This document shows, piece by piece, positions 10,707 to 39,313 of a stretch of DNA of 64,000 bases; position 1 is the first letter of the stretch, and the number at the start of each line of letters is the position of its first letter. Made by a program: the position numbers and the translations under genes. Source of the DNA: an uncultured Dehalococcoidales bacterium (GTDB lineage Bacteria; Chloroflexota; Dehalococcoidia; Dehalococcoidales; E44-bin46). Below the pieces are notes generated by a model. It saw only the letters and a list, made by a program, of their open reading frames with translations, was not told the origin of the DNA and did not search any database. The DNA lies in NCBI GenBank assembly GCA_964354655.1, contig CAYHAL010000004.1:2841-66840 (forward strand). Direction: 5' to 3'.

Positions 10707-10714
10707 ATACTTAG

Positions 10715-10788: not shown

Positions 10789-10795
10789 CATTTAT

Positions 10796-20335: not shown

Positions 20336-20369
20336 TGTAAGGACAAAATTATTAAGGAGGATGAGCAAA

Positions 20370-21233
20370 ATGAGGCAAATAGCGAAAAAGACTATCCTCG
20401 ACTTTTTGGAAATGAAGCGGAGGGGAGACAAGATGACCTTTCTTACCGCTTACGACTTTCATATAGCGTCCATTCAGGAGCAAATAGGCGTCGATATGAT
20501 ACTGGTCGGGGATTCCGTAGGCATGGCAGTGTATGGCTATTCTGGGGGAACCATACCGGTGACGATGGATCAGATGATTTATCACGCGGAAGCAGTCCGC
20601 CGGGGTGCCCCCAACACATTTATCATTGGCGATATGCCCTTTCTCTCTTACCACGAATCGGCGGCCGACGCGGTGCATAATGCCGGCCGCTTTTATAAGG
20701 AGGCTGGCGTGGATGCCATCAAGCTAGAGGGAGGAAAAAGAGTAACCGCGCAGATACGGGCAATTGTTGATGCGGGGATGGTGGTGATGGGCCACATTGG
20801 GCTGACACCGCAAAGCACGGCAGCGCTCGGAGGCTTTAAAACTCAAGGAAACACCGCCGAGACAGCAATGGCACTGCTCGAGGATGCGAAAGCTGTTCAA
20901 GAGGCAGGTGCCGCTCTTACCTTGGTCGAGGCAGTACCAGCAGAGACGGGTAAGCTGATCACGAAAACCCTTCGTATACCGGTGATTGGCATCGGTGCCG
21001 GAGCTGACTGTGATGGGCAAGCTCAAGTATACACTGATGCGATTGGTCTCTTCGAACTCTTCACACCAAAATTCGTAAAGAAATATGCAAATGTAGCCGA
21101 AGTAATAAGAGAGGCCCTCAAAGAATGGAGTAAGGAGGTTCGTGAAGGTACGTTCCCGGCTTCAGAACATTGCTACAAGATGAAAGCGGGTGAGGCAGAA
21201 AAACTAGAGGAGATGGTAAAGCAGATCCTTTAG
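20370..21233 (+). CDS. panB: 3-methyl-2-oxobutanoate hydroxymethyltransferase (ketopantoate hydroxymethyltransferase), copy 1
   Basis: LTAYD..ILVGDS.GM.VYGY..T.PVTMD..HAEAVRRGA..GDMPF.SY..KLEGG blocks. The start is set at the second ATG (9 nt after SD aaggagg); the ATG at 20361 is an alternative. Confidence 0.9.
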   Translation: MRQIAKKTILDFLEMKRRGDKMTFLTAYDFHIASIQEQIGVDMILVGDSVGMAVYGYSGGTIPVTMDQMIYHAEAVRRGAPNTFIIGDMPFLSYHESAADAVHNAGRFYKEAGVDAIKLEGGKRVTAQIRAIVDAGMVVMGHIGLTPQSTAALGGFKTQGNTAETAMALLEDAKAVQEAGAALTLVEAVPAETGKLITKTLRIPVIGIGAGADCDGQAQVYTDAIGLFELFTPKFVKKYANVAEVIREALKEWSKEVREGTFPASEHCYKMKAGEAEKLEEMVKQIL

Positions 21234-21432: not shown

Positions 21433-22074
21433 ATGAAAAAAATTGATGTCAAAAAAACAGCCATATTAGTATTGCACACTCAGAACGGTATCGTGAAGCC
21501 GGGTAAGTTTGGATATTCCGGGGCACCGGCGCAGGTCCAGAAACATAATCTACTGGAGAAGATACAAAAAGCGCTAGTGGCAAGTAGAGCAGCTGGTGTA
21601 CAGGTTATCTACGTAAATTGGTGCACGAAACCAGGGTACCCAAGGGTAGGTGATCCCATGTTTCAATTTCCCCTGCTTAATGATGCCTACAAAGCCGGCG
21701 TTGACTGTGCGTACACTAATGAAGGTGGTTATAGTAAAAACTACAAGAACCCTGATGAAGTAAAGCCGGTACTATCAAAGGACTACATAGTTGATAACTG
21801 GGGCTGCGATGGTTTTATGTATTCCGATTTAGAATTAATTCTTCGCGCCCGAATGATAACAGATGTAGTTGCAACCGGGGTAGCCACTGATTGGGTGATT
21901 AATAGCACGGTGAGACACGGACAAGAGATAGGTTTTAATATGATAGTCGTCGAGGATTGCTGTCAGTCGTTTGCCGAGGACATGCATCAGCACCAAGTAA
22001 CACGCATACTGCCTCAGATTGCTACTGCGGTTGTTAAGCTAGACGAGTATCTTGCTGCTTTACCCAAAAAGTAA
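21433..22074 (+). CDS. isochorismatase-family cysteine hydrolase
   Basis: 213 aa; TAILVLHTQNG.., ..VATGVATDWVINSTVRHG..VVEDCC pattern of the isochorismatase fold. Start at MKKIDV, with SD gaaggggg upstream. Confidence 0.75.
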   Translation: MKKIDVKKTAILVLHTQNGIVKPGKFGYSGAPAQVQKHNLLEKIQKALVASRAAGVQVIYVNWCTKPGYPRVGDPMFQFPLLNDAYKAGVDCAYTNEGGYSKNYKNPDEVKPVLSKDYIVDNWGCDGFMYSDLELILRARMITDVVATGVATDWVINSTVRHGQEIGFNMIVVEDCCQSFAEDMHQHQVTRILPQIATAVVKLDEYLAALPKK

Positions 22075-22158
22075 AACCAAGTGGGTTATGAAATAGCAAC
22101 ACAGTATTGACAGACTTTGCTACTAGAGGTGCAGCAATTTCTCGTTAGCACGATTTGA

Positions 22159-22476
22159 CTTGCTGATTCATTCTCACTGAAAGACAAGGTAGTCTACGCA
22201 GGCATAGAAGCGGCTGATGACTTTGGGGAGAGGCCCTATATTCAGGGGGAGCAGAAGCTGAGTTTGAGCCTGGCCAGGAATCTCCTTCTTATTAGTGATG
22301 GGGCTAGGTAGATCAGCGACATTGTCGGTGCTGATTACCTCAAAGCCACCTACCAGCTCGACTGGTGGCACTACGAGAAGAAGCTGATGGGTGCCTTACC
22401 CGGTGAGTTGAAGCTCAGGTTATTGAGATATGACCGGAAGGACTGGAAGGCATACTGGCGGTCAAGGATTAACTGA
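22159..22476 (+). pseudogene. ISLre2/UPF0236-like transposase fragment with a Trp-to-stop (TGG to TAG) mutation
   Basis: ..LLLISDGAR*ISDIVGADYLKATYQLDWWHYEKKL.. The DGAxWI and LDxxH blocks of this transposase family are present. TAG at 22309-22311 sits where Trp is expected. The N-terminal two thirds are missing. Confidence 0.45.
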
Positions 22477-22788
22477 CAATCTCGAATCTGAGACAAGTCT
22501 GTAGGAGGAAAGGAAATAGCCCTATAAGGGCTCAAATCTCGTTGGAAAAAGAACACCCACTTGACATGCAGGGAGCAATGTAGTATGTAGTACGTAGTAT
22601 GTTGATACCAAGTTTTTTGAGGTGGGCCAAAAAATTTCACCAACTTTTGAACGCAACCTGGACGAGAACACGCTCTTGACAAATTATGCTATAGTTATAA
22701 TAGAGTTACATGCGTGGCAAATGTAATTTTAAGCGTAGTTTTATTGACGGTAAAGTAGCCTAACAAATGAAGTTGTGAGGTCTATTAT

Positions 22789-23058
22789 ATGGCATATAAG
22801 ATTCGAGAGAATTGCTGTAATCTCTGCGGCTTGTGTGATATAGAGTGTTTAAACCAAGCAATTACTGAGGGCAAGATAAGCTTTGTGATTGACCCTGATA
22901 AGTGCACCGAGTGTGTAGGTAACTACCAATCACCAAAGTGTGCTGAGGTGTGTAACCTAGATTGCCCTGTACCTGATCCCGACCACGTGGAAAGCCACGA
23001 GCAATTGCTTGAAAAGTGGCACCGGTTACACCCAGCTAAAACTCCGATTGTTACTTAA
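22789..23058 (+). CDS. 4Fe-4S dicluster ferredoxin (YfhL-like)
   Basis: CNLCGLCDIEC and CTECVG...C..VC cysteine motifs; 89 aa, directly upstream of the AOR gene. Confidence 0.85.
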   Translation: MAYKIRENCCNLCGLCDIECLNQAITEGKISFVIDPDKCTECVGNYQSPKCAEVCNLDCPVPDPDHVESHEQLLEKWHRLHPAKTPIVT

Positions 23059-23152
23059 AGATTGAGGGGGTGAGATTATGGATAATGGATAGTTGATTGG
23101 TTAATTTAAGTAATGCAAGGTGAGAGGAAAAAGTAAAAAAGGGGGGAAAAGG

Positions 23153-25045
23153 ATGATAAAAGGTGGCTACAGAGGGAAAATATTGCGCGTGGATTTGACC
23201 ACGGGTAGTATCACTGTTGAGGGGTTACCTGACGAAAGCATACTAAGAAAGTATGTGGGCAATTTTGGCTTGGGTCTATGGTATCTGATGAAGGAGTTGC
23301 CTGATGGTGTTGGTCCTTTGGAGCCAGAGAACCCCTTAATTTTCCTGAATGGTCCTCTTGTTGGGACAAGGGTGCCGTGCCCCAATAACTGCACCATCAC
23401 TACATTGAACGCCGATACTGGGTTTACTGCTGGTCGCGCTCACAGCCATGGCTGGTTTGGTCCCTTCCTGGCTATGGCTGGGTATGATGGCATCATATTT
23501 ACCGGCGCCTCGGATAAATGGGTTTATCTCTGGATTGATGATGGTAAAGTTGAGCTCCGGGATGCAGCTAAGTTCGTGGGCTTGGATACTCACGAAACGG
23601 AAGACGCTGTTAAGGAGAACCTCGGCGTTCCTACCGAGGTTGGAGCCGTAGGAGGGGCAAGTGTTGCTGCCATCGGACCGGCGGGCGAACACATATGTGC
23701 TGGGGCGCTGATTGCCAATGACAAGAACCATTCATTTTCCCACTCCGGTGTTGGTGCGGTAATGGGCTCCAAGCGCTTGAAGGCTATAGCGGTTAGGGGA
23801 ACCGGTGAGGTTCCGGTATACGATGCCGAAAAGCTCAAATCAATAACCAGGGAATGGACCAAGAAGGCGACTACGGCAGGGATGTTTCCCATCATTGGTC
23901 AGGCTGGAGTCCCAAGTAGCAACTATAAGGGAGTTATAGGGCTTGTCGGGCTGTCAGCAAAGAACTGGACGGTAAATGTCATCCCCGGCTTCGGTGATGG
24001 CATGACCAAGCATAAGATTACCCCTAAACCATGTTACCGGTGCCCGGTGGCCTGTTCCTATGATGTAGAAGTGGTATCGGGTCCATATAAGGGCTATGTA
24101 GCCTCATTATCCGGTGGTGGAGAGAATCAGGAAGGGGCGTCATCTATTGTTGGCGTTGGTGGCAAAGGCCCTGGCGAGGTATGGTACCTGACAGACCTTA
24201 ATGACCGGCTTGGTTTCGAAACAAGCACCGTGGGCTGTGCCATGGCTGTTGCCTTTGAGGCTTATGAAAAGGGGCTATTGACAAAAGAGGTTACCGATGG
24301 TCTAGAGTTGAAATGGGGGGATGTTAAAGTAGTCGAAACCCTGCTCAGGAAGGTTGCCAACAGAGACGGGTTCGGGGCAATGTTAGCCGAGGGACCAAAG
24401 GTTGCTGCACAGCGTGTTGGCTTACCTAATGCAGCAGTTCACATCAAGGGCTCAGGGATGAACCTCCATGACTGGAGAAGAGCCTGGGGAAACTATTTGG
24501 GGCAAATTGTTAGTGGAGGTTCTGGTTGGCCGGCACCCGGCGCTGATTGCTGGACATCTGAAGCCGATGCTGGTTACCCGGAGAAGCCCGACCCATTAAG
24601 CCCATACGGAAAGGCAAAAGAGGTGGCAAAAACAGGCATTATAAAATTCTGGAATGATTGTATCGGGTGCTGCTGGTTTGGAACCTGGGGCGTTGTTGGC
24701 ATTATGAAACATACCGCAGATGCTATAGCTGACGTCGTCGGCTGGGAGGGCTTCACCGCTGAGGAAGCTTTACTGGTAGGAGAGCGGGTGGTAAGCTTGG
24801 AGAGGATATTTAACATGAAGCACGGGCTAACGGCTGATGATGATATAAAGGTATCACCTCGGCTGACCGAGCCGGCACCAGCCGATGCTGGTCCTGCCGC
24901 TGGTTTAAGTATTGCGCCTTACATTGAAGGCTGGGTGCGAGACTACTACGAGGAGATGGGTTGGGAGCGAAAGACGGGTAGACCGCTGAGGTCAACAATG
25001 AAAAGGTTAGGGCTTGAAGAATTCATAGATGTCGTCTGGGGTTAA
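23153..25045 (+). CDS. aor: aldehyde:ferredoxin oxidoreductase (tungsten/molybdopterin AOR family)
   Basis: N-terminal GYRGKILRVDLTTG.. block and the AOR family organisation over 630 aa, with a ..CYRCPVAC.. Fe-S ligand region. Start at MIKGGY with SD aagggggg. Confidence 0.9.
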   Translation: MIKGGYRGKILRVDLTTGSITVEGLPDESILRKYVGNFGLGLWYLMKELPDGVGPLEPENPLIFLNGPLVGTRVPCPNNCTITTLNADTGFTAGRAHSHGWFGPFLAMAGYDGIIFTGASDKWVYLWIDDGKVELRDAAKFVGLDTHETEDAVKENLGVPTEVGAVGGASVAAIGPAGEHICAGALIANDKNHSFSHSGVGAVMGSKRLKAIAVRGTGEVPVYDAEKLKSITREWTKKATTAGMFPIIGQAGVPSSNYKGVIGLVGLSAKNWTVNVIPGFGDGMTKHKITPKPCYRCPVACSYDVEVVSGPYKGYVASLSGGGENQEGASSIVGVGGKGPGEVWYLTDLNDRLGFETSTVGCAMAVAFEAYEKGLLTKEVTDGLELKWGDVKVVETLLRKVANRDGFGAMLAEGPKVAAQRVGLPNAAVHIKGSGMNLHDWRRAWGNYLGQIVSGGSGWPAPGADCWTSEADAGYPEKPDPLSPYGKAKEVAKTGIIKFWNDCIGCCWFGTWGVVGIMKHTADAIADVVGWEGFTAEEALLVGERVVSLERIFNMKHGLTADDDIKVSPRLTEPAPADAGPAAGLSIAPYIEGWVRDYYEEMGWERKTGRPLRSTMKRLGLEEFIDVVWG

Positions 25046-25150
25046 GTAACCAATTAGCTCCAGGAAAAAGTAAAAAGGGAGGTGGTTGAGATGTTTAGCT
25101 AGTAGAAGGCATTAAAAGGGTTGTTAAGAATCTAAGGAAAGGAGTAAAAA

Positions 25151-26224
25151 ATGAAAAAGATTTTTATACCGTTAATGACGGTAGCCGTGGTAGCTGCCCT
25201 ACTCCTTGGCTGTATGCCAGGAGCGCCAGTAACACCACCAGTAACTCCACCGGAAGAAGAGGTCTATACGTTCGTATACCATTGCCCGTTCCCTCCCAAT
25301 CAGATCCTAGCTGACATCGAGGTATGGTACCTTGACCAGGTTGAGGCGAGGAGTGAAGGCAGGATTAAATTTGACAGGATCTTCGGTGGTACTTTGGGGA
25401 CTCTGTTCGCTCAATCCGAGAACGTAACAGGTCGTGTCTTTGATGTGGGGCAGACAAGCTATGTCTATACTCCCGGGCTATACCCGCTGGGAACTGTGAC
25501 CACCTTGCCTTGCATCGAAGATGTTCCGAGAGTATGGGCTCCTGCCGTCCACGAGCTGATGAAGGACCCGCGATTAGTGGCGGAGTATGAAGCCGTAAAT
25601 CAGAAGTACCTGTTCGTCTGGGCTCTGGAGCCGATGGAGATAATGTCCCACGTACCGATCCATACCTTAGAGGACTTCCAGGGGCTGAGGATTAGGGTTC
25701 ACGGTGGTTCTGCCTTAGCTGCTGAGAAGCTGGGGTGGACCGGGGTAACTGTAGCGTGGGAGGAACTCCCTGTGGCTGCGGCGGAGCATGTCGTTGACGC
25801 TGCCTGCTTCCCTGTCCCCATTACCGGTCGCGACGCCGGCTTGCATACTATCTTCAAGTATTACATTACCCCATTCCCCATCTATCAGTTCCATTTCGCT
25901 ACGACTATGAACCTGGATGCTTGGAATGAGCTACCACCTGACCTTCAGCAGGTGATGCTCGACGTTGCCCCTGACGGAGTAGCGTATGGTCTTGACTACC
26001 TCGACGAGAAGATAGCAGGGGGGTTGCAGGATTTAAGAGATGTGGGTGTCGAATTTATCGACTGGCCAGCTTCAGAGATGGACGAGTTTAGAGCACTGGC
26101 AGGCGCGCCGGTGTGGGAGGATTGGGTTGCTGAGCAGGAGGCTGCCGGTCGCCCCGGACAAGAGATATTAGATGCGTTCCAGGCGCTGCTCGCTCAGTCT
26201 AGGTTAAGTACAGGTTTAAAGTAA
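25151..26224 (+). CDS. dctP: TRAP transporter substrate-binding protein (DctP-type), lipoprotein
   Basis: Signal peptide with lipobox LLLGC. 357 aa, followed by the small and large TRAP permease genes. Confidence 0.8.
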   Translation: MKKIFIPLMTVAVVAALLLGCMPGAPVTPPVTPPEEEVYTFVYHCPFPPNQILADIEVWYLDQVEARSEGRIKFDRIFGGTLGTLFAQSENVTGRVFDVGQTSYVYTPGLYPLGTVTTLPCIEDVPRVWAPAVHELMKDPRLVAEYEAVNQKYLFVWALEPMEIMSHVPIHTLEDFQGLRIRVHGGSALAAEKLGWTGVTVAWEELPVAAAEHVVDAACFPVPITGRDAGLHTIFKYYITPFPIYQFHFATTMNLDAWNELPPDLQQVMLDVAPDGVAYGLDYLDEKIAGGLQDLRDVGVEFIDWPASEMDEFRALAGAPVWEDWVAEQEAAGRPGQEILDAFQALLAQSRLSTGLK

Positions 26225-26312
26225 AGACTGGGCAAGATAGGATTAGGGGGGGTTGTGGGGGAGGGCACCTCACGCCCCCTCTTACTAAATTTAGTTTGGG
26301 AAGAAAACGATA

Positions 26313-26804
26313 TTGGGAAGATTAGGCAGGTTTTCAAACTACCTAGCTAAGGCGGAAGACGGGCTAGCCTTAGGTGCGGCATTTGTTATTGGCTTTATGA
26401 TGGTATACACGGTGGTGGCGGTGGTGACGCGTGCTGCCGGGAGCCCGATAAGGGGTTTCACAGAGTATGTTACCCTGATCTTTGTCTTCGTGGTAATGCT
26501 TACCATTTCCTTTGCCCAGCGCCGGGGGGAGCACCTGGCAATGTCGATTGTGTTTGACCGGCTGTCGCCAAGGGCTCGGCGTCGTGTTCTCTGTGTCCTC
26601 CTTTCGCTGGGGATATTCATCTGTTTTCTCCTCACCTGGTCGAGCCTCCGTATGACCATGTTTGCATATGTGATGGGGGATACACTAGTGGGGGCAATAC
26701 AAGTTAAGACCTGGTGGTCACGGATGGCTATGCCCATTGGCTTGGGCATAACTACCGTGCGGCTCGTCGTCCAGATGGTTCAGACAGTGAGAAGGGAGAT
26801 ATGA
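26313..26804 (+). CDS. dctQ: TRAP transporter small permease (DctQ-type)
   Basis: 163 aa, 4 TM helices, lying between the DctP and DctM genes. Non-ATG (TTG) start as tracked. Confidence 0.8.
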   Translation: MGRLGRFSNYLAKAEDGLALGAAFVIGFMMVYTVVAVVTRAAGSPIRGFTEYVTLIFVFVVMLTISFAQRRGEHLAMSIVFDRLSPRARRRVLCVLLSLGIFICFLLTWSSLRMTMFAYVMGDTLVGAIQVKTWWSRMAMPIGLGITTVRLVVQMVQTVRREI

Positions 26805-26829
26805 TGATTAAGGGGAGAGTTAATAGGAC

Positions 26830-28137
26830 ATGAGCCCATTGACTGTGGGGATTATTCTGATGGGGGTTCTGGCGGCACTGATAGTGCTGAAGTTCCCCAT
26901 CGGTTTTTCCTTTCTCATCGTCGGCTTCTTTGGATTCGCTGCCCTGAGGGGTTTTGACAGCGCTTTTGCCTACCTCGCCAGTAAAGTCTTTTCTGGTACT
27001 GCCTGGTATTTACTCACTGTGGTGCCCCTGTTCGTCCTCATGGGGGAGTTTGCCTTTGCCGCCGGGATTGGCGAAGGCCTTTTCAGGGCAGGGCGGGCTT
27101 GGCTGGGGCAGGTTAGAGGCGGGCTGGTGATGGCTACCACCATGGCTAACGCCGCATTTGGGGCTGCCTGCGGCATGCCCACGGCAGCCGTGGCAGTGTT
27201 TGGTAGGATGGCTCTCCCCGAGATGCTCAAGGCCAAGACCGACCGCTCCCTGGCGGCAGGCACAGTGGCGGCAACGGCAGGGCTGTCGGCGGTAGTCCCT
27301 CCCAGTGTACCCGCCATTATTTATGGCTTCCTCGCCATAGCCCCCATTCACAAGTGCCTTATCGCCGGTCTTTTCCCTGGTTTAGTTACTGCCCTGGTTT
27401 ACGTGGGGATGATATCTATCAGGCTGAGAATCAACCCCACCTTAGCCCCAGTCACCAAAGCCACGGTCACCTGGAGGGAAAGGTTCCGCTCACTTGGAGG
27501 AATCGGGCCAATGTTAGCGATAGTCATACTAGCTATCGGGGGCATTTATGGCGGTATATTTACCCCAACTGAAGCCGGCGCTGTCGGCGCTACCGGTATG
27601 CTCATCATCGGTGTGGCGTTCAGGAGGTTCAACTGGCCCAAACTCCGCGAGGCCCTTCTCATGTCTGCCCGAGACACCAGCGTCATCTTCATTATTATTG
27701 GCGGGATTGTTCTCTTCTCCGGCTTCCTCGCTGTGAGCGGTATCAGTGGGGCAATGACCAATTTTGTCACTGGTCTACCTGTGTCGCCTACCGTGGTTGT
27801 CATCTTCACTGTGTTTATGTATCTCGGCTTGGGTTGCGTTCTTGACCCGTTCTCGATGATGTTCCTGACGGTTCCCTTGCTGGCACCGATTATGAAGACG
27901 CTGGGGGTTGACCTCATCTGGTGGGGTGTGCTGGTGGTGAAGATGGCAACGATTGGTATGATTACTCCCCCGGTGGGTATAAACTGCTATATGCTTAGGA
28001 TTGTGTGCCCCGAATTAGATTTAGGGGAAATCTTTAGAGGCGCTATTCCGTTCTTGGCGGCGGAGGCGGTGGTTATGACTCTGCTGATTGTCTTCCCTCA
28101 GATTAGCCTGTGGCTGCCGGGCATGATGTATCGTTGA
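26830..28137 (+). CDS. dctM: TRAP transporter large permease (DctM-type)
   Basis: 435 aa polytopic membrane protein with typical DctM organisation. Confidence 0.9.
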   Translation: MSPLTVGIILMGVLAALIVLKFPIGFSFLIVGFFGFAALRGFDSAFAYLASKVFSGTAWYLLTVVPLFVLMGEFAFAAGIGEGLFRAGRAWLGQVRGGLVMATTMANAAFGAACGMPTAAVAVFGRMALPEMLKAKTDRSLAAGTVAATAGLSAVVPPSVPAIIYGFLAIAPIHKCLIAGLFPGLVTALVYVGMISIRLRINPTLAPVTKATVTWRERFRSLGGIGPMLAIVILAIGGIYGGIFTPTEAGAVGATGMLIIGVAFRRFNWPKLREALLMSARDTSVIFIIIGGIVLFSGFLAVSGISGAMTNFVTGLPVSPTVVVIFTVFMYLGLGCVLDPFSMMFLTVPLLAPIMKTLGVDLIWWGVLVVKMATIGMITPPVGINCYMLRIVCPELDLGEIFRGAIPFLAAEAVVMTLLIVFPQISLWLPGMMYR

Positions 28138-28232
28138 TGTTTGTTGCTGGCAAAATCCTTAATAAGCCAACGTTGTTTTATTTTTATAAAGGCGGGTTTA
28201 AGGGTAAATAGTAGAGAAGGTGAATATAGCAA

Positions 28233-29435
28233 ATGATGCCACGAACGTCTTTTAGGAAAGGGAAGTCTCTCGATGAGATGTATGAGATTGACAATGCTAA
28301 ATATAAAAGGTTCGATTCATCAAAAGAGGGTTTTGTAACGCTTACGGAAAAGAAGACTGGTAAACCTGTACATAGCATCCAAGACATCGTGAATTTTCTC
28401 ATCGGAGGCTTTGTGCCGGTTATGATGAAAGACATTCAGGGGAACACATCCGGCAAATCGCGGACAGACCACGCTCTTCAGTTTGGAGCCGCTGCAGTAA
28501 ATTACATCTTAGGCATGTACGGCGACCAGAATGCTAACGAGCAATTTCTAAAGTGGAATTCCTTGTTTGTACCAGAAGACCTAAATAAATGGCGGTCAGA
28601 GGCTGACCCGGACAAGCTTACCTCCCTCATAAAAGACGCTGCTAAGCTGTATGGCGCATGCCTTGTTGCCACTACGGAGCTTGACAGCAGATGGGTCTAT
28701 GAGGGAGATGTACATAAACGCTTCATCTTTGATGATGTTGAACAGCCGATGGAGAAAGGCGATACCCTTGTAATTCCCAACTCAATAAATAGAGCGGTAG
28801 TAATGGCTGTTGAAATGAATAAGGAGCTTATTTTACAATCACCCGGAGCAGGTGCAACTGCGGCTACCGATCTTGGATATGCCATGATGGGCTTCATATC
28901 TATATCCTTAGCCGAATGCATACGGGCTCTCGGTTATAACGCGATACCATGCATGAATGATACTGCTCTAAGCATACCGTTAGCGATAAGCGCTGGGCTT
29001 GGTCAACTTGGTAGACATGGTCTTCTAATAACACCTGAATATGGTTCTTGCATTCGCTTGTGCAAGGTTTTGACAGATATGCCCCTTAATGTCGATAAGC
29101 CTATTGATTTTAGACAAACAGAATTTTGCGACCAATGTTTGGTTTGTGCCAAAGAGTGTCCCGCCGATGCTATAAGCTTTAAAGATAGAACAATGAGCGG
29201 ATACAATGAGAACAATAATCCTGGTGTTAAGAAGTGGTATATACAAGCGGAAAAATGCCTCCAATTTTGGCTGGATAATGGCACGCCTTGTGCTGTCTGC
29301 ATAGCTGTATGCCCCTTTACGGAGGGCTTTGCCTCCACAGCAAGACAGTGCTTACAATGCGAGAGATGTGTTGCCCCTGATTGTCCACTACAATCGATGC
29401 CTATACAAGACCGAAGCAAGGACACCTATAAGTGA
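28233..29435 (+). CDS. reductive dehalogenase-superfamily protein (RdhA/QueG-like), cytoplasmic type without TAT signal
   Basis: EIDNAKYKRFD resembles the RdhA mature N-terminal block. Iron-sulfur motifs are CDQCLVCAKECP and C-x10-CAVCIAVCP, plus an extra CLQCERCVAPDCP. There is no RRxFxK leader, and no small membrane-anchor gene lies adjacent. Confidence 0.75.
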   Translation: MMPRTSFRKGKSLDEMYEIDNAKYKRFDSSKEGFVTLTEKKTGKPVHSIQDIVNFLIGGFVPVMMKDIQGNTSGKSRTDHALQFGAAAVNYILGMYGDQNANEQFLKWNSLFVPEDLNKWRSEADPDKLTSLIKDAAKLYGACLVATTELDSRWVYEGDVHKRFIFDDVEQPMEKGDTLVIPNSINRAVVMAVEMNKELILQSPGAGATAATDLGYAMMGFISISLAECIRALGYNAIPCMNDTALSIPLAISAGLGQLGRHGLLITPEYGSCIRLCKVLTDMPLNVDKPIDFRQTEFCDQCLVCAKECPADAISFKDRTMSGYNENNNPGVKKWYIQAEKCLQFWLDNGTPCAVCIAVCPFTEGFASTARQCLQCERCVAPDCPLQSMPIQDRSKDTYK

Positions 29436-29515
29436 GGAAAGGTGGGGATGCTTGGGAGCAATATTTAGTGCCAAATGCCAAGCTATAAAATGATTAACTT
29501 CAGGTTTTAATTGAG

Positions 29516-30835
29516 ATGAAGACTGCTCAGATTGAAAATACAATACCAGATAATATAGAAATCAAATTTAGAGACGGGAAAATAATACACACTGAAACAG
29601 GTAGTTATACCGTTCTACCACCCGATACCATTATAACCGCGGAGAAGGTGTTTGAAATAATTGGTGTGGTTAAAGTAGAGCAAGTTAATCCTAACTTTAC
29701 CGATGGTGTTCCTATTTTTAGACTAAATGAAGCCCCAGTAAAAGCAAAATGTCACCGTCAGGCTTGCCAGTGGGCACTCCCGCCTACTCCCTTGAATAAT
29801 CCTCCCAAGGAAAGCTTTGGTAAGGGGATGACTGTACCGCAATCGAAGGCAAGCGCGATGATGGAAGCAGTAGAGAGATATTGCGGGCAAAGATTTCATC
29901 ACAGTAGGGTTATTAATGCAAATTATGAGGAAGTGCGGGACTACGCTGTTCACCCCTCTGAATTTAATTTGCCGACCTTGCCACCAAAGTGTGAAAACTG
30001 CGTGGAGAGGAATAGGGGATGTTTTCAAGAACTTCAAAACGCTTGCCAGGAATGGAGTTGGGGTTACTCATTGATAACTAAATCACCAGCTCTAATTCCC
30101 TCTGCATTGGTTTATTACCCCTATATATCGAAGAACAATCTATCGTTTATATTTAATGATACTGGCGGTCTCTCAGCAGGAAATACACTGGAGGAGGCAA
30201 TATTGCAAGGGATGGCCGAGGTAATTGAAAGAGATGCGCTATACTATGCTTTTAATCTGGGCAATCTAAGGAGCATGCCAATGGTCACCTTCAAAAATAC
30301 AAAAAATAGACATATTCAAAAATTTATTGCTGAGGTACTGCCCCCAGAGGGTATCTTTGCTTTCCATATACAGAACAAAAATCTTGACCTTAATATTGCT
30401 TCATTTAGTGCCTTTATATGCTACAAGATAGGGAATGAGCGTCATTACTTTGGTGGCTCAGGAACGAACCTTAATCCGGAGACAGCTTTACTAAGAGCAT
30501 TAACTGAGCTGGAGCAGCAGAAAGTTAGGCAAAAAGTCTTTGCTGAATTTGACCCTAATGACTTGGTGTCGCACAGTAGCCTAAAACAAGAGGATGTTAT
30601 TGCTCTTGAAGAAATCCCTAATCAATCCACAGGTGATATAAGAAAAGATGTAGAGTTATATTTAGATAGATTATTAATAAACGACACAAATGTTATCATA
30701 ATTAACTTAACTCACCCCGAGATAGGAATACCAGTTGTTCGGGTTGTAATACCAAAACTGATTTCATATTCGGGGAGCCCTATTAAAGAGTCGCTGTTTC
30801 TTGATACAATTAAGGCTTTTGGTGGGCAGTGCTAA
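29516..30835 (+). CDS. ycaO: YcaO-domain protein (ATP-dependent amide-activating enzyme family)
   Basis: SFGKGMTVPQSKASAMMEAVERYCG and GMAEVIERDA blocks of the YcaO ATP/Mg site; 439 aa. The gene is markedly AT-rich by eye. Confidence 0.85.
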   Translation: MKTAQIENTIPDNIEIKFRDGKIIHTETGSYTVLPPDTIITAEKVFEIIGVVKVEQVNPNFTDGVPIFRLNEAPVKAKCHRQACQWALPPTPLNNPPKESFGKGMTVPQSKASAMMEAVERYCGQRFHHSRVINANYEEVRDYAVHPSEFNLPTLPPKCENCVERNRGCFQELQNACQEWSWGYSLITKSPALIPSALVYYPYISKNNLSFIFNDTGGLSAGNTLEEAILQGMAEVIERDALYYAFNLGNLRSMPMVTFKNTKNRHIQKFIAEVLPPEGIFAFHIQNKNLDLNIASFSAFICYKIGNERHYFGGSGTNLNPETALLRALTELEQQKVRQKVFAEFDPNDLVSHSSLKQEDVIALEEIPNQSTGDIRKDVELYLDRLLINDTNVIIINLTHPEIGIPVVRVVIPKLISYSGSPIKESLFLDTIKAFGGQC

Positions 30836-30944
30836 CTTATCACTCCGTTCACTAATTTGGCTTTTTAGCGATTAGGGGTGATACATTTTCACCCAGTTAC
30901 TGCAATATCTGATACCTAGACTATCCCATCTCCTGTTTCAACTG

Positions 30945-31778
30945 CTATTTCTTGAATCGGATCGACTTGAACTTCTGCATTTGTTCTCTTATTGCGACTT
31001 CGGTCGGCAGGCGTTCCATACTCGATGCGCCATAAAACCCATGTATACCCTTTGTTTTGCTGAGAACATACTCAGCATCTTCAGGCATGGAGATTGGACC
31101 CCCGTGGCACAAGGCAATGATGTCCGGATTTACAGATTTTGCCGCGTCGCATATTTCCTGAACCCTGGCTGGTGCTTCCTCGAGTGACACTGCAGTCGTG
31201 GCTCCGATGGCCCCCTTGGTGGTCAGTCCCATATGCGCGACAATAATGTCAGCACCGGCTTCGGCCATTGCCTTTGCTTCCTTAGCATTAAATGCGTATG
31301 GTGTAGTCAGGAGGTCCAGTTCATGAGCCTTGCGAATCATGTCAACTTCAAGACCATACCCCATACCGGTCTCTTCAAGGTTTTGCCGGAACAAACCATC
31401 GCATAAACCAACCGTTGGAAAGTTCTGGACTCCTGAAAAGCCGATCTCCTTAACCTGCTTAAGGAAAACGTCCATCTGGCGGAAAGGATCCGTGCCGCAC
31501 ACTCCGGCAAGAACCGGCGTGTCCTTGACAATGGGCAGCACTTCGCCAGCCATTTCCATGACGATAGCGTTGGCGTCACCGTAGGGCATCAGGCCGGCAA
31601 GCGAGCCTCTACCTGCCATGCGGAAACGTCCGCTGTTATAAATCACAATCAGGTCAACTCCCCCTGCCTCTTCAAATTTCGCGCTGATACCAGTTCCGGC
31701 GCCGGCACCGATAATCGGAAGACCCGCCTCAATATTCTTCCTCAACCGTTCAAGGACTTCACTACGTGTAAATGCCAT
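30945..31778 (-). CDS. PEP-hydrolase-like TIM-barrel protein (TIM-barrel signal-transduction family, usual partner of UPF0261)
   Basis: 277 aa; [35 protein letters not shown].. is the family N-terminal block. Its start lies 3 nt downstream of the UPF0261 stop. Confidence 0.75.
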
Positions 31779-31780
31779 AA

Positions 31781-33022
31781 TTACCTCCTTTTCTTATTGT
31801 TTGCCTGTTTGATTAGATCTAACATCATCTCAACCGCTTTGGCAGAAAACTGGGGATCATTGATATTGTTATCCATTTCAATTACAGGAATACCCGCCTT
31901 GACGTTGGCCTTGATGGCATCGAACATTGCCCTATCCGCCTCACGGTCACAGAAAGGCTGGCCGTCGCCGTTAAGAATCGATACCCCTTTCAGAGGAATG
32001 AGAAAGGCAACTGGACCTTTGGCAGCGTTTGCTTTCTCAGCGAAAACCTTTCCCATTTTTTCATTCTCCTCATTGTTCGTGCGCATGAGCGTAACTGATG
32101 GGTTCCACTCGTAGAAGGTGCGGTTTGCCTCTTTGTATTTCGCTGGTACCGTGTCCGGTGCCCCGAAATTAGCCATGTCCACGCAGCCTGGAACGATCAG
32201 GTGAGGTATTCCCATTCGGCCGGGGGCATCAAGGCGTTCTGGGCCTGCGTCAAGCACCCCGCCGCAGACGGTATCAGCCCACTCGGTTGTCGTGATGTCA
32301 AGGACAGCGTCCACTAATCCCTCGTTAACCAGGCTCTCCATAGTCTTTCCACCGGTACCGGTGGCGTGGAAGACAAGAACCTCGTAACCCTTTGCCGACA
32401 ATTCCTTTACACAAGCGTTCACGCACTCCGTGGTGTTACCAAACATTGATGCCGTGATAACCGGCTTATCCTCCGTGGCTTCTGGAATATCCGTTTCCAC
32501 CATACCGCAAATTGCTCCCACTGCACGCGAAAAGATAATCCTCGAAACCCGGTTGATGCCGGCAACGTCAACAATTGATGGAATCATCGTGATATCCTTT
32601 GTCCCAACGTAAACCGACACATCCCCTGATGCTACGGTTGATGCACAAACCTTGGGAACACCCACCGGAAGAATACGCATCGCTGAAGTGACCACGGTGG
32701 TCGCAGCACTACCACCCATACCAAAAATCCCGTCAAACTTGCCCTCATCATAAAGTGACTTGATGAGCCTCGCTGCCCCGGCACACATGACCTTCATGGC
32801 TTCACCGCGATCCTTCTTTTTACGAAGCTGCTCCAGGTTCCCCCTACCCGACTCAGCAACCCTGTCCGCTTCAACGTCCACAGGAAAGAGAGCCGTCGTT
32901 CCGAGGACGCCCGTATTAACTGTAAAAACCTTATGTCCACGGCTGAGTATCTGTTCCCGCACAAAGGCATACTCTTCTCCCTTGGTATCAAAAGCACCGA
33001 TTAAACAAATTGTTTTCTGCAT
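31781..33022 (-). CDS. UPF0261 / Tm-1-like ATP-binding protein
   Basis: 413 aa; the pattern ..[12 protein letters not shown]....I...G......D.G. and co-operonic pairing with the TIM-barrel partner. Confidence 0.75.
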
Positions 33023-33303: not shown

Positions 33304-34890
33304 TCAAGTTGGCATAATGCCGTGTTTTTTCTCAGGTCTCTGTTCCGCTTTGTTTATTGCCATTTCTAGGGCTTGGATAAGCCTCGGCCTGGTTTCTGCC
33401 GGCTCGATTACGTCGTCAATGTGTAGGTGCTCAGCGGCTCTATATGGGTTGGCGAACGTGTCTCTATACTCCTTTATCTTCTCCTCCAACAGTTTGTCGG
33501 GGTCGTCTGTCTTTTCCAACTCTTTTCTGAATATTATGGCTGCCGCTCCATCCGGTCCCATCACCGCCAGTTCAGTGGTAGGCCAGCAAAATACGGCATC
33601 AGCACCCAGGTCTTTACTGCACATTCCAAGGTAAGAGCCTCCGTAAGCTTTTCTGATAGTGAGGGTAATCTTTGGCACCGTAGCCTCGGAATAAGCGTAA
33701 AGCATCTTAGCTCCGTGTCTAATTATTCCTCTCCATTCCTGTTCCGTTCCTGGTAGATATCCAGGCACATCAACCAAGTTGACGATCGGAATATTAAAGG
33801 CGTCGCAGAACCGGATGAACCGGGAGGCCTTATCACAGACATCGATATCCAGAGCTCCCGCTTTTGACATCGGTTGTTGAGCTATTATGCCCACCGACCA
33901 TCCATTGAGTCTAGCAAAACAGGTGATAATGTTAGTGGCAAATATGGGGAATATCTCGAAGTAATTTTTCTTCCCATCCTGCCTCTGGTCAAATACCCTC
34001 TCAATTATCTTGTGCATGTCATATGGACTGCTTGGATTCGCCGGGACAATATCAAACAGGGTTGTGTCGGTACGGGTTGGCTTGTCTCCCCAATCAACCC
34101 TTTTAGGAGATTCTCTATAGCTTGATGGCAAATAGCTTAGCAGCTCCTTTATACTTTGCAGGCACTCCTCCTCACTGTTTTCCGAGCGGCAAGCAACTCC
34201 CGCCTTCTTTTGAGCGACAATAGCACCACCCAGTTCCTCATGGCTAATCTCTTCTCCCATAATAGCCTTAACCACCTGCGGTCCGGTTATATAGGCATAA
34301 CTTATGTCTTTAACCATAAATATGAAGTCCGTGAGCGCTGGGGAATATACGCCGCCCCCAGCACAAGGACCAAGGATAGCGCATATTTGAGGGATTACAC
34401 CAGAATAGATTGAGTTTCGATAGAAAATCTGTCCATATCCAGACAAAGCATCAACGCCGTCCTGAATCCTTGCCCCTCCGGAATCATTTATTCCTATGAT
34501 AGGACACCCCGCTCTTGCGGCGCTATCCATTATTCGGCAAATCTTTGCGGCATGTATTTCTGATAGGGTTCCACCTATGCTGGTGAAATCTTGGGCATAA
34601 ACATACACCTTTCTGCCGTCAATCTTTCCATACCCAGTGATTACCCCGTCCGCTGGCACCTGTATTCTATCCATACCAAAAGCGGTACCTCTATTTGTAG
34701 CAAACATTCCAATCTCGCAAAATGTCCCCTCATCCAGTAACTTCTGAATTCGCTCACGTGCTGTTAGCTTACCTCGCTTTCTCTGTTTTTCCACATTCTC
34801 GCTGCCCCCCATCTCCTCAACCTTTTGTCTACGCTTTTGTAGCTCAGCTAGCAATTTCTTCTTTATTTGCTTATCTTCATTTGTCGTCAT
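33304..34890 (-). CDS. methylmalonyl-CoA carboxyltransferase / propionyl-CoA carboxylase beta-type carboxyltransferase
   Basis: Two-domain carboxyltransferase blocks (..GGARIQDGV..SGYGQIF.., ..GIIRHGAK..YA..EATVPKIT...RKAYGG.Y.). The start is set at MTTNED (SD gagggg), abutting the epimerase stop. Confidence 0.9.
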   Translation of the reverse strand: MTTNEDKQIKKKLLAELQKRRQKVEEMGGSENVEKQRKRGKLTARERIQKLLDEGTFCEIGMFATNRGTAFGMDRIQVPADGVITGYGKIDGRKVYVYAQDFTSIGGTLSEIHAAKICRIMDSAARAGCPIIGINDSGGARIQDGVDALSGYGQIFYRNSIYSGVIPQICAILGPCAGGGVYSPALTDFIFMVKDISYAYITGPQVVKAIMGEEISHEELGGAIVAQKKAGVACRSENSEEECLQSIKELLSYLPSSYRESPKRVDWGDKPTRTDTTLFDIVPANPSSPYDMHKIIERVFDQRQDGKKNYFEIFPIFATNIITCFARLNGWSVGIIAQQPMSKAGALDIDVCDKASRFIRFCDAFNIPIVNLVDVPGYLPGTEQEWRGIIRHGAKMLYAYSEATVPKITLTIRKAYGGSYLGMCSKDLGADAVFCWPTTELAVMGPDGAAAIIFRKELEKTDDPDKLLEEKIKEYRDTFANPYRAAEHLHIDDVIEPAETRPRLIQALEMAINKAEQRPEKKHGIMPT

Positions 34891-34891
34891 G

Positions 34892-35293
34892 TTATCCCCT
34901 CGGCTCAACTAGTTCGATTAATACCTTCGTTTCTTTAGGATGCAGAAAGGCTATCCTAGTGCCTTTAACACCGCTTCTTGGCGTCTCATCGATGAACTGA
35001 ATCCCTTTTTCTCTCAGCGTGTCTAGCGCCTGTTGAATATCACTTACTTCCAGAGCCAAGTGATGTAGTCCCTCCCCCCTTTTTTCAATGTACTTAGCAA
35101 TAACTCCTTCGGGATCGGTTGACTCTAGTAACTCAATCTTACCCTCACCCACCGGGATAATGGCAGTCCTCACCTTCTGCGCTTCCACAATCTCTATATC
35201 TTTAACCTTTAGCCCTAGGGCATCGGTATATAGCTTTAGTGCATCTTCGATACTATTTACCGCAATCCCTATATGGTTAATCTTTTTAATCAA
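34892..35293 (-). CDS. mce: methylmalonyl-CoA epimerase (VOC/glyoxalase fold)
   Basis: [12 protein letters not shown]...Y...LG......E......V..A......IELLE....[22 protein letters not shown] favour a TTG start at 35293 (SD ggagggga), giving the typical ~133 aa. Confidence 0.85.
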
Positions 35294-35696
35294 TGCTCCC
35301 CTCCGGTAGGTTTTCTTCAATGAACTTGACAATTTCGGCAATGGGTGTGCCTGGGCCGAAGATTTGGGCGATCCCAGCCTCTTTTAACTTGGGGATATCT
35401 TTCTTTGGTATGATTCCGCCCCCAATAAACAGGATATCCCTGCCACCCCTTTCTCTGACCAGACTCACTGTTTTCGGGAATAAAGATAGGTGAGCGCCAG
35501 ACAGGCAACTCAGACCAACCACATCTACATCCTCTTGAATAGCCGCCTCGGCAATTTGCTCTGGCGTTAGACGTAACCCAAGATAGATTACCTCCATCCC
35601 GGCATCTCTTAAACCTCGAGCTACTACTTTGATTCCCCTATCATGCCCGTCTAGCCCAGGTTTAGCTATTAAGACTCGTATTTTTCTATTCTGCAC
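35286..35696 (-). CDS. methylmalonyl-CoA mutase, B12-binding small subunit
   Basis: 136 aa with the cobalamin motif DGHDRG and a GG..P fingerprint. Confidence 0.9.
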
Positions 35697-35713
35697 AGCA
35701 AATACCTCTCGGC

Positions 35714-37330
35714 TTAGAGTATATTTGGCTCTCGGTATTCCCCAAACACATCTCTCAGGGCATTACTTATCTCTCCTACGGTGGCATAAGCCTTAACTGC
35801 CTCAATTAGTGCCGGCATAATGTTCTCGTCACTCCTAGCTACGTCACATACTTCATCTAGCACTTTGCTTACTTTTTGGTTATCCCTTTCCTGCTTTAAT
35901 CTTTTTAATCCCTCTATTTGTCTTTTCTCAACTTCTTCGCCAATCTCTAGAACCTTTGGTGCCTGCTCCTCCCTTACTGTGAACTTATTCACACCGACAA
36001 CGACTTGTTCACCAGAATCTACCGCCCTTTGATAGTTGTAGGCTGAAGTTGCAATTTCTCTCTGAATATATCCCTTCTCTATTGCTTTTAAGGCACCGCC
36101 CATTTTATCAATTTCAGTGATATATCTCATTGCCTTATCTTCTATTTGGTTGGTTAAGCATTCTATATAGTATGAACCACCTAGCGGGTCAACAGTGTCG
36201 GCGACACCGCTCTCATAGGCAATGATTTGCTGGGTTCTCAGGGCAACTTGCACTGCTTCCTCACTGGGCAAAGCCAGTGCCTCGTCAAATGAGTTAGTGT
36301 GTAAAGATTGGCAGCTCCCCAATACAGCGGCTAGTGCCTGCAAGGTTACTCTCACGATGTTATTAAGTGGTTGTTGCTCGGTGAGCGTGAACCCGTCGGT
36401 TTGAACATGATATCTTAGCATCATCGACCCTGGGTTCTTGGCGCCAAATCTTTCCTTCATTATCTTAGCCCATATCCGGCGTAATGCCCTAAACTTGGCG
36501 ACTTCCTCAAGAAGGTTGGTGTAGGCAGCAAAAAAGAATGAGAATCGTGGGGCAAAAGAGTCAACATCCATTCCTTTGTCTATCATCGCTTGAACATAGG
36601 CAATTCCATTAGCTAGAGTAAAGCCAGCTTCTTGAGCGGCAGTAGCCCCAGCCTCCCGCATATGATAGCCACTGATGCTTATTGAGTTCCATAGTGGCAT
36701 ATTTTGGGCGCAATAGGAGCAAATATCAGTAACCAATCGCATAGATGGAGTCGGACCAAAGATATACGTGTTTCTGGCTATATATTCCTTCAATATATCG
36801 TTTTGCACAGTCCCTCTGAGCTTATCAGCAGTTGTTCCCTGCTTTTCGGCAGCAGCAATATATAAGGCCAATAAAATTGGTGCCGTGGAGTTAATTGTCA
36901 TTGATGTGCTTACCTCGGCTAATGGAATACCGTCCCAAAGCCTCTCCATATCTTTAAGCGAGTCTATGGCAACACCACACTTGCCAACCTCTCCAGCGGA
37001 AAGTGGGTGGTCTGAATCATATCCCTCTTGAGTAGGTAAATGGAAGGCGACACTAAACCCAGTTTGCCCTTGCTCGTACAGATATTTGTACCGCTTATTT
37101 GTCTCTTCTACACTGGCAAAGCCAGCATATTGGCGCATAGTCCATAGCCTGCTCCTGTAGCCGGTGGGCATTATATGCCTAGTATATGGATACTCACCAG
37201 GAACACCAATGTCCTCCTGCTTACACCCCTCCAAATCGGCCAGTGTATATACCCTATTGACTACAATTCCATCAACGGTAGTCCTGAACTCCTTCTTTCT
37301 TTCGGTTATTTCTTTTTTCTTCTCAGGCAT
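35714..37330 (-). CDS. methylmalonyl-CoA mutase, large (substrate-binding TIM-barrel) subunit
   Basis: 538 aa; PG.YPYTRH...[29 protein letters not shown] blocks. Confidence 0.92.
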
Positions 37331-37350
37331 TCCCCTCTCCCTAAGTGCAT

Positions 37351-38100: not shown

Positions 38101-38410
38101 TCCAGGAATATACTCCTTAGGCTATTCAAAAAATCTTCCCAGTGTCCCTACCCTGCGAACAATTGAGTGTTTGGCCTTTATATATAACTCTTAATGACTT
38201 AAACTCTGTTCTATATTTTACCGCATTCCACTTCCTCAGTAAAGATTTTGAATCAAATCGTCTTATATATTATGTAACCAAAGACCTGTGCTGAATCACA
38301 CAAAAGTTGCTGTAGTGTCTGCATCACGGACAAGGTGGCCTCTCCAAATCAATGTCGCCCCAGCGCAGCCCAGTGTAGGCTTTAGTGTGGTCGCACATTA
38401 AAACGCAGCA

Positions 38411-38439
38411 TTGAGCAACTTGTTTAAATAGTGTAAAAT
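38411..38439 (+). promoter_or_regulatory. candidate promoter TTGAGC-N17-TAAAAT for the crotonase-hbd-abfD operon
   Basis: Hexamers read directly, 55 nt upstream of the start at 38495, in the divergent intergenic region. Confidence 0.35.
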
Positions 38440-38494
38440 TTAAAACACGACTTTATAGAACTGACCTATGATGGATAGCTAAGGAGGTCACTAA

Positions 38495-39265: not shown

Positions 39266-39313
39266 CCTGCCTCTGGATAGTTTGTCAATACTATAAGAAA
39301 GTGAAGGTGATGA

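Follow-up and report, generated by a model that had tools for sequence, protein, structure and literature searches.

What are a tungsten-type oxidoreductase, a relative of the reductive dehalogenases, and a YcaO protein doing side by side in one gene array? The array in question lies at positions 22789 to 30835 of a 64,000-nucleotide stretch of contig CAYHAL010000004.1 (the whole stretch is called the window below), which comes from an uncultured Dehalococcoidales bacterium. A first-pass annotation, made from the letters alone, had described seven co-oriented genes with short gaps and suggested that they import and reductively process an organic acid, possibly a halogenated one. Open reading frame (ORF) positions and profile matches agree with that description: seven intact ORFs, all on the + strand, occupy the positions it gave, with spacers of 94, 105, 88, 25, 95, and 80 nucleotides in array order, and its family calls (ferredoxin, AOR, DctPQM, RdhA, and YcaO) are all borne out by profile searches. 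The genes are as follows (aa, amino acids).

22789 to 23058, + strand: YfhL-type 2x[4Fe-4S] ferredoxin, 89 aa, 10 cysteines (NF033683, 88.6 bits; cutoff, 86)
23153 to 25045, + strand: tungstopterin/[4Fe-4S] oxidoreductase of the AOR (aldehyde:ferredoxin oxidoreductase) family, non-canonical subfamily, 630 aa (AFOR_N and AFOR_C domains)
25151 to 26224, + strand: DctP, TRAP solute-binding lipoprotein, 357 aa (PF03480; lipobox LLLG-C21)
26313 to 26804, + strand: DctQ, TRAP small permease (PF04290, E value 4e-22)
26830 to 28137, + strand: DctM, TRAP large permease (PF06808, E value 4e-74; TIGR00786, 266.5 bits)
28233 to 29435, + strand: cytoplasmic, PceA-like protein of the RdhA (reductive dehalogenase) family, 400 aa (TIGR02486, 190.1 bits; cutoff, 160.35)
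29516 to 30835, + strand: stand-alone YcaO protein of a small private clade, 439 aa (PF02624, E value 7e-60; TIGR00702, 118 bits; cutoff, 76)

Which of these genes belong together? About 130 related loci were compared. From the RdhA side, a scan with one genome per species and an alignment of 28 relatives yielded 80 loci, complemented by tblastn searches with the other window proteins. From the YcaO side, a metagenome scan with seven clade members, together with contig look-ups, yielded 19 dereplicated lineages with enough flanking sequence. The conserved core consists of the AOR-family, RdhA-like, and YcaO genes, sometimes with the ferredoxin gene, and YcaO is the hub, the most constant member of the association, although the first-pass annotation had assigned it no role. 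In the RdhA-side loci, the three genes are directly adjacent in the window order and lack TRAP genes; identities there are 69 to 78% for AOR, 50 to 61% for the RdhA-like protein, and 38 to 70% for YcaO, and over all trio loci they reach 80, 62, and 72%, respectively. The trio is found in Atribacterota, a Clostridiales metagenome-assembled genome (MAG), a Bacillota MAG, Peptococcaceae, Desulfobacterota, Dehalococcoidia, Bathyarchaeia, and further metagenome contigs. A deltaproteobacterial MAG also carries a ferredoxin gene at its trio locus, and orthologues of the window ferredoxin (65 to 96% identity) are encoded upstream of the AOR gene in L019, L101, L107, L109, and L129. In one organism the trio stands by itself, with a shikimate operon on one side and unrelated genes on the other, and all-against-all clustering of the neighbors in trio loci brought out no further conserved gene.

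The 19 YcaO lineages put numbers on this association. An AOR-family gene lies within 5 kb of ycaO in 14 of them and an RdhA-like gene is adjacent to it in 14 (counting one pseudogene, L132, disrupted by an insertion sequence); both stand by ycaO in 11 lineages and neither does in 2. The order is permuted to AOR-YcaO-RdhA in L127. Since the same families recur as neighbors across phyla, their grouping goes beyond chance. Over ten trio loci, the three proteins rise and fall together in pairwise identity (Mantel r of 0.79 to 0.90, p<=0.0005), which fits inheritance or transfer as a block, and part of this correlation could stem from shared ancestry. In most lineages, ycaO is flanked by a gene for a coenzyme A (CoA) transferase of family I or III, or for a ligase of the AMP-forming kind, and an acyl-CoA dehydrogenase gene is often present too. 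The substrate-responsive regulators beside the relatives' loci differ: IclR, TetR, or a two-component pair of PAS kinase and GerE regulator. L019 and L127 encode RdhA-like proteins that are 93% identical, YcaO proteins that are 59% identical, and AOR-family proteins that are 81% identical, and their gene orders differ; such unequal identities together with the differing order point to recombination inside the module.

The RdhA-like protein had been read as a cytoplasmic, TAT-less member of the RdhA superfamily, and its N terminus, MMPRTSFRKGKSLDEMYEID, indeed contains no twin-arginine motif and no hydrophobic stretch. Its best solved relative is PceA (4UQU; E value 2e-59, 204 bits), and a Foldseek comparison of its AlphaFold2 model (pLDDT 81) gives TM scores of 0.79 for PceA (4UQU/4UR3), 0.62 for NpRdhA, and 0.38 for QueG. 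RdhA profile and PceA-like fold are accompanied by the two Fe-S motifs (C299/302/305/309 and C342/353/356/360) and by the catalytic residues, with Y216/N242/R275 aligning to Y246/N272/R305 of PceA; motifs and residues are invariant in 28 relatives. The family also has an extra invariant C-terminal CxxCxxCx4C (C373, C376, C379, C384) beyond the two canonical clusters, which may form a third Fe-S or a Zn site, perhaps a cluster for docking a soluble donor. Could the protein be an epoxyqueuosine reductase, QueG, an identity that would have undone the first-pass annotation's proposal? This candidate was rejected. The QueG profile TIGR00276 scores 50.3 bits (cutoff, 200) and covers the Fe-S region alone, QueG structures in the PDB score 29 to 33 bits with a TM score of 0.38, and the protein lies nearest to respiratory PceA rather than grouping with QueG. 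A QueG-like function is poorly supported.

How does this protein compare with the RdhA enzymes already described? It shares with PceA of Sulfurospirillum multivorans (4UQU) the cobamide-binding core, the two Fe-S motifs, and the equivalents of Tyr246/Asn272/Arg305, but lacks the Tat signal, RdhB, and membrane complex and adds the invariant CxxCxxCx4C tail. NpRdhA and BhbA are likewise cytoplasmic RdhA-family enzymes without Tat or RdhB in an organic-acid catabolic context. However, the window protein is much nearer to PceA; its match to NpRdhA reaches 86 bits, and only residues 187 to 367 align with that enzyme (395 to 575). At 400 aa it is shorter than NpRdhA and BhbA (about 700 aa), and both the duplicated, vestigial second cobalamin domain and the NAD(P)H reductase module are missing. 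It comes from an anaerobic host, ferredoxin is its likely electron supply, and the C-terminal Cys motif sets it further apart. The bhb cluster reportedly also has TRAP genes, which a review does not mention. More than 1,300 database relatives exist, nearly all of 390 to 420 aa and signal-less. “Simplified cytosolic” RdhA-like proteins of about 395 aa have been described in cold-seep Desulfobacterota and Chloroflexota (2025 survey, PMC12219181), and these resemble the window protein in size class, phyla, and the missing Tat signal and vestigial domain; the terms “gene cluster,” “neighbo,” and “aldehyde” do not occur in the main text of that survey. Cytoplasmic RdhA genes of Atribacteria are highly transcribed in Baltic sediment (PMC6469976).

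In the wider RdhA-like family, AOR is the commonest neighbor (12 of 46 loci, including 31 to 32%-identical paralogues), and distant relatives in Dethiobacter, Alkalibacter, and Asgard archaea occur without YcaO. Five Clostridia loci (L031, L034, L045, L047, and L048) place a member of this wider family next to genes for an ArsR regulator and a permease of the ArsP_1 type, and other loci have glyoxalase-family, GCV_H, or OsmC neighbors, a context unlike that of the YcaO-linked members. The ArsR/ArsP_1 neighborhood was dropped as a functional clue, as it does not apply to the YcaO-linked proteins.

Turning to the tungsten enzyme, its place in the AOR family is clear. Profile searches find AFOR_N (PF02730, E value 8e-64) and AFOR_C (PF01314, E value 2e-70), the top PDB match is Pyrococcus furiosus AOR (1AOR, 289 bits), the four cluster cysteines C294/C297/C301/C507 align with C288/C291/C295/C494 of the P. 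furiosus enzyme, and the pterin-binding motifs are retained. The two enzymes thus share domain architecture, [4Fe-4S] cysteines, and pterin motifs, as well as pairing with a ferredoxin. Its true start is most likely the ATG at 23153 rather than the GTG listed at 23120; the 630-aa product of that ATG is identical to an existing database entry.

The TRAP transporter is complete, as first described, with three Pfam matches and a lipobox in its binding protein. In the stretch GLRIRVHGG of DctP, R182 lines up with the Arg found in 4N6D and 4NAP (LEVRASG and MEIRGAG), a residue expected, as in the family generally, to bind carboxylates. The best PDB relatives of DctP score 81 to 89 bits; 4NAP binds a D-amino acid, and one DctP member binds indole-3-acetate. 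Comparison with characterized TRAP binding proteins, which the first-pass annotation had proposed, therefore yields the conserved Arg but no named substrate, the solved relatives being too distant. What occupies the slot next to the AOR gene elsewhere? Its contents vary among TRAP, DASS, DUF1097, and EamA. TRAP genes are present in only 2 of the 19 lineages, which belong to two phyla and carry them at differing positions: the window lineage and L132, a Desulfobacteraceae contig with TRAP upstream of the AOR gene (DctP, DctQ, and DctM 39, 36, and 49% identical to those of the window), a decayed, IS-disrupted rdhA, and an intact ycaO. A DASS anion symporter is encoded in Bathyarchaeia (L025), DUF1097 in L107, L109, and L117 with remnants in Atribacterota, and an EamA transporter in L129. 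TRAP is therefore an interchangeable, lineage-specific accessory outside the conserved core. Conservation of the array, which the annotation had wanted tested, holds for AOR, RdhA-like, and YcaO across phyla and fails for the transporter. Carboxylate uptake is nonetheless backed by three independent associations: TRAP in the window lineage, TRAP in L132, and DASS in L025. Together with the recurrent CoA enzymes, these associations speak for the uptake and processing of an organic acid, though by a transporter that the core does not require.

What, then, might the array do? We tentatively favor a mobile cytoplasmic cassette for the ferredoxin-linked processing of an imported carboxylic acid, with ATP-dependent activation by YcaO and delivery of the product to CoA and beta-oxidation enzymes. 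The array would be a composite: a horizontally mobile AOR-family enzyme, usually with a YfhL-type ferredoxin of its own, a PceA-like cobamide reductase lacking a signal peptide, and a YcaO protein, between which the window lineage would have placed a TRAP carboxylate importer (separating the AOR gene from the RdhA/YcaO genes). The steps may be envisaged as follows. (i) TRAP would import a carboxylate-bearing organic compound, as transporter and Arg suggest. (ii) The tungsten enzyme, judging by its family, might oxidize aldehyde-level carbon and reduce ferredoxin, a step weakened by its altered active site (described below). (iii) Ferredoxin would pass electrons through three Fe-S sites to the RdhA-like protein, which would use its cobamide to eliminate a substituent reductively. 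With the Tyr/Asn/Arg set intact, a halide is the default guess for this substituent. (iv) YcaO would spend ATP on activating the carbonyl of an amide, which could belong to the substrate or to a partner protein; this is the least certain step. (v) The acid product would pass through CoA-transferases or ligases to beta-oxidation enzymes, the recurrent neighbors. Electrons would presumably flow from the tungsten enzyme to the RdhA-like protein; a halogenated substrate is pure conjecture, and every aspect of the YcaO reaction is conjectural.

A more ambitious version, which we consider unlikely, makes tungsten enzyme, PceA-like reductase, and YcaO one new ATP-assisted, ferredoxin-coupled system with a small organic acid as its substrate. 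In this version, YcaO would either phosphorylate a metabolite at a carbonyl or amide oxygen or spend ATP on hydrolyzing a stable amide, and the tungsten and B12 enzymes would between them balance an oxidation against a reductive elimination. If true, this would be the first YcaO to work in catabolism on something other than a peptide, and an RdhA-family protein would have gained a new function.

A number of points weigh against the cassette interpretation. The first concerns the tungsten enzyme. At residues 455 to 467 it has GGSGWPAPGADCW in place of NNRGGCH, with no equivalent of His448; aligned to this motif are NNRGGCH448IKG (P. furiosus AOR, 9G7J) and SNRGACHLRG (WOR83). The Glu313 region is altered as well, with ENQE in GGGENQEGA against EYE(313) in an ambiguous alignment. 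The protein thus differs from the canonical aldehyde-oxidizing AORs, which have both Glu313 and His448, and aldehyde oxidation is not assured. To name it an aldehyde oxidoreductase is an assumption, and of the first-pass annotation's claim of an AOR that interconverts acids and aldehydes, family membership stands whereas plain interconversion cannot be assumed with the catalytic His absent. The RdhA-like protein, for its part, contains no halogen-specific motif, and all characterized YcaO proteins, to our knowledge, act on peptides or proteins rather than on small molecules. The core, too, has gaps. RdhA-YcaO pairs occur without a nearby AOR gene (L102, L103, and L136), AOR-YcaO pairs without rdhA (L101, L107, and L119), YcaO loci with neither (L104 and L114), and a 73%-identical RdhA with neither partner (L015). 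When AOR-clade loci are chosen irrespective of YcaO, only one of four informative loci has it (L132, not L131, L134, or L135); the AOR-YcaO link is asymmetric, being weaker when seen from the AOR side. The possible share of common ancestry in the Mantel correlation belongs here as well.

Two further observations concern the slots within these loci and the AOR branch. The middle slot is filled elsewhere by a DUF1097 membrane protein with MoaA (L107) or by a cupin with an OYE-type (old yellow enzyme) reductase (L119). The GGSGWPAPGADCW motif also occurs in a sister clade at 54 to 59% identity, making this a large, uncharacterized AOR-family branch. No motif is private to the YcaO-linked AORs; GWPAPGADCW and SGGGENxEG are likewise found in that sister clade.

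What is known of the YcaO protein itself? Its clade comprises about 75 clusters with scores from 963 down to 281 bits, followed by a sharp drop to 195 bits (ThiF-fused cyclodehydratases, partial coverage) and then to about 145 bits (McrA-glycine thioamidation YcaOs of Methanobrevibacter). The AlphaFold2 model (pLDDT 92.7) matches the ATP-bound YcaO structures 6PE3 and 6CIB, and the nucleotide-site Glu residues in SAMMEAVER and EVIERD are invariant; the protein belongs to the YcaO superfamily with its ATP-binding domain. It falls outside three subgroups of assigned function. Against the profile for azoline-forming (TOMM, thiazole/oxazole-modified microcin) YcaOs, TIGR03604, it scores 139.5 bits (cutoff, 219); against that for McrA thioamidation, TIGR03266, 138 bits (cutoff, 365), and the hosts of its clade are bacteria and non-methanogen archaea; against that for the Escherichia coli type, NF040716, 25 bits (cutoff, 700), with TM scores of 0.46 to 0.50 to 4Q84-86.

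Might YcaO be a maturase instead? By this account, which we regard as doubtful, it would modify the backbone of the tungsten enzyme or the RdhA-like protein (by forming a thioamide, azoline, or amidine), and the rest of the array would be an ordinary ferredoxin-linked redox pair. The analogy is with methanogens, whose YcaO modifies McrA. Sequence and fold both lend it weight: the nearest full-length relatives outside the clade are the McrA-glycine thioamidation YcaOs (30 to 31% identity over 90% of the length), and the best fold match is the Methanocaldococcus jannaschii thioamidation YcaO bound to peptide (6PEU; TMt 0.74 to 0.77), followed by LynD. MJ1094 of M. jannaschii (6PEU/6PE3; methanogenesis marker 1), the nearest full-length relative that is characterized, is also a minimal, stand-alone YcaO without E1/ThiF fusion. 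But identity to the MJ1094 type is 22 to 31%, the hosts of the window clade are non-methanogens without McrA, and the window protein has Cys-rich insertions. In these insertions, which are absent from the Pfam core, C79/C159/C162/C169 are invariant across 34 clade members and suggest a metal site, or more broadly a metal- or sulfur-handling one, which would also suit a maturase. So would the stand-alone form of the protein with no precursor peptide gene nearby, and the fact that YcaO depends on the presence of AOR or RdhA more than the reverse. Against it, L104 and L114 have YcaO without AOR or RdhA nearby, no TfuA gene turned up, the YcaO-linked and the YcaO-free AORs are not told apart by any clade-specific motif, and the association of YcaO with CoA-transferases and ligases is no looser than that with the metalloenzymes.

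A second alternative, which we judge improbable, is that there is no functional unit at all: an aldehyde-detoxifying ferredoxin-AOR pair, a housekeeping TRAP transporter, and unrelated rdhA and ycaO genes would merely be adjacent. Several features of the window lend it some color, among them the variability of rdhA, which is confined to the following segment.

28189 to 29530, no strand: 1.3-kb presence/absence segment holding rdhA alone (no alignment to L101, L112, or L121)

The closest relatives, L100, L101, L112, and L121, with YcaO proteins 92 to 97% identical to that of the window, have the order ferredoxin-AOR-DctPQM-YcaO without rdhA. The flanks of the segment, 22505 to 28188 and 29531 to 31881, align to L101, L112, and L121, with about 87 and 95% DNA identity, respectively, to L101, in which 42 bp replace the 1,342-bp rdhA segment. 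L112 keeps the rdhA leader and ribosome-binding site and lacks the gene. The nearest rdhA-bearing relatives, L103 and L136, encode adjacent RdhA (77% identical) and YcaO (72 to 76%). Loss in the sister strains is probable rather than gain in the window lineage, since the leader is kept in L112, RdhA-YcaO adjacency is widespread, and in L136 the identities of RdhA (77%) and YcaO (76%) are about equal; insertion into the window lineage was judged less likely. The gene is dispensable, as the sister strains without it show, and it is also maintained in nature, for six contigs from four samples encode an identical RdhA protein. The last two genes had been noted as more AT-rich, and they are: GC content at third codon positions (GC3) is 0.43 for rdhA and 0.36 for ycaO, against 0.51 for the AOR gene and 0.57 to 0.64 for the TRAP genes, in a window of overall GC 0.484. 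That both might be a later addition does not hold up, as ycaO is the most constant member of the association and rdhA alone is variable. The TRAP proteins, moreover, are much more diverged from the sister contigs than AOR and YcaO are (63 to 69% identity for DctP against 92 to 97% for YcaO); this divergence, together with the jump from about 87 to about 95% identity across the rdhA indel, points to a recombination breakpoint or cassette replacement.

The dispensable rdhA, the diverged TRAP proteins, the GC3 differences between gene blocks, and the occurrence of AOR-clade genes in other contexts would all suit mere adjacency. It fares less well against the comparative evidence: the three families are neighbors in at least six phylum-level groups, in permuted order and with different flanking genes, their divergences co-vary, and the tiny YcaO clade is almost always in the company of AOR or RdhA.

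A third alternative, in which the RdhA-like protein would reduce organohalides as a respiratory enzyme and the whole array would serve this respiration, seems very improbable. The class Dehalococcoidia includes obligate organohalide respirers, and respiratory PceA is the closest relative in both sequence and fold. The protein nevertheless has no Tat signal, N-terminal transmembrane helix, or rdhB-like gene beside it (the flanking genes are dctM and ycaO), and its neighbors are cytoplasmic enzymes. Weaker still, and hardly credible, is the idea that YcaO marks a natural-product cluster for a ribosomally synthesized and posttranslationally modified peptide: the YcaO protein has family-level similarity to the cyclodehydratase domains of TruD, LynD, and MusD, but no E1/ThiF partner or precursor peptide gene was found in the array or related loci, nor an RRE (peptide recognition element), dehydrogenase, protease, or dedicated exporter, no short ORF is conserved (six-frame reading of the AOR-RdhA gaps in relatives gave DUF1097 membrane genes or decayed remnants, and an ORF of 71 to 80 aa between rdhA and ycaO in L018 and L095 is limited to one species-level lineage), and the gene context is catabolic.

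Returning to the cassette interpretation, why would it matter? Full-text literature searches found no paper mentioning YcaO together with a reductive dehalogenase or with AOR, and the AOR-RdhA-YcaO combination was found described in no paper; it is a relative of the known cytoplasmic RdhA gene clusters. RdhA homologues that lack a signal peptide abound in anoxic sediments and are transcribed there (in Dehalococcoidia, Atribacterota, Bathyarchaeia, and Asgard archaea), and this locus and its relatives supply such a protein with a testable set of partners: a dedicated ferredoxin, a tungsten oxidoreductase, and YcaO. The YcaO protein sits in a catabolic, acyl-CoA-linked gene context, and either outcome for it, action on a small molecule or maturation of a tungsten or B12 enzyme, would be new, since characterized YcaOs modify peptide or protein backbones. 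The finding also draws attention to a large subfamily of AORs whose active site is altered. Finally, the natural sister strains with and without rdhA are a ready comparison for metatranscriptomic or enrichment work.

Are the seven genes transcribed together? Co-transcription is plausible. Promoter and terminator consensus scans gave nothing above shuffled expectation and no array-internal terminator-like site beyond chance, folding of five intergenic spacers found no significant structure (z of -1.4 to +0.7), and Rfam searches (whole window at the gathering threshold; 22000 to 31000 at E<=1) found no riboswitch or regulatory RNA. With these scans yielding nothing above chance, operon structure is unproven. 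Rfam matches were limited to one chance snoRNA match and three tRNAs elsewhere in the window; the three tRNA genes are clustered at 10621 to 10869. Contigs from NCBI, Logan, and JGI encode exact copies of several window proteins, whose close relatives are named as proteins of Dehalococcoidia MAGs. Upstream of the array lies a leader.

22075 to 22788, no strand: gene-poor leader of 714 bp, 5' of the ferredoxin gene (ORFs without Pfam match)

Within it, an element of about 85 bp (22503 to 22587) with an internal hairpin, AGCCCTATAAGGGCT, recurs in relatives; it may be a repeat that is mobile or takes part in recombination. The window has one copy and L101 has two, of which one sits at a rearrangement junction that truncates a UPF0261 gene. 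In the sister contigs L005 (8409 to 9026) and L011 (3346 to 3963), a gene for the DNA ADP-ribosyltransferase toxin DarT lies immediately 5' of an identical ferredoxin gene, which places the ferredoxin-AOR unit in at least two upstream contexts.

The wider surroundings offer some further observations. About 6 kb upstream of the array, at 16222 to 16917, is an rve-type integrase ORF (HTH_21 plus rve). Downstream, a PEP_hydrolase-like (PF09370) and UPF0261 pair on the - strand (30945 to 33022) converges on ycaO and is kept in the sister contigs; UPF0261 is truncated in L100 as well as in L101. The window encodes two PanB (ketopantoate hydroxymethyltransferase) paralogues, at 20361 to 21233 and 48091 to 48948; the former is followed by an isochorismatase-family amidohydrolase gene, an arrangement also found upstream of the AOR gene in L133. 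Positions 33304 to 46778 hold a dense block of acyl-CoA metabolism genes, which encode propionyl-CoA carboxyltransferase, methylmalonyl-CoA mutase with MeaB, enoyl-CoA hydratase, 3-hydroxyacyl-CoA dehydrogenase, thiolase, ADP-forming acyl-CoA synthetase, and an HpaB/4-hydroxybutyryl-CoA-dehydratase-like protein.

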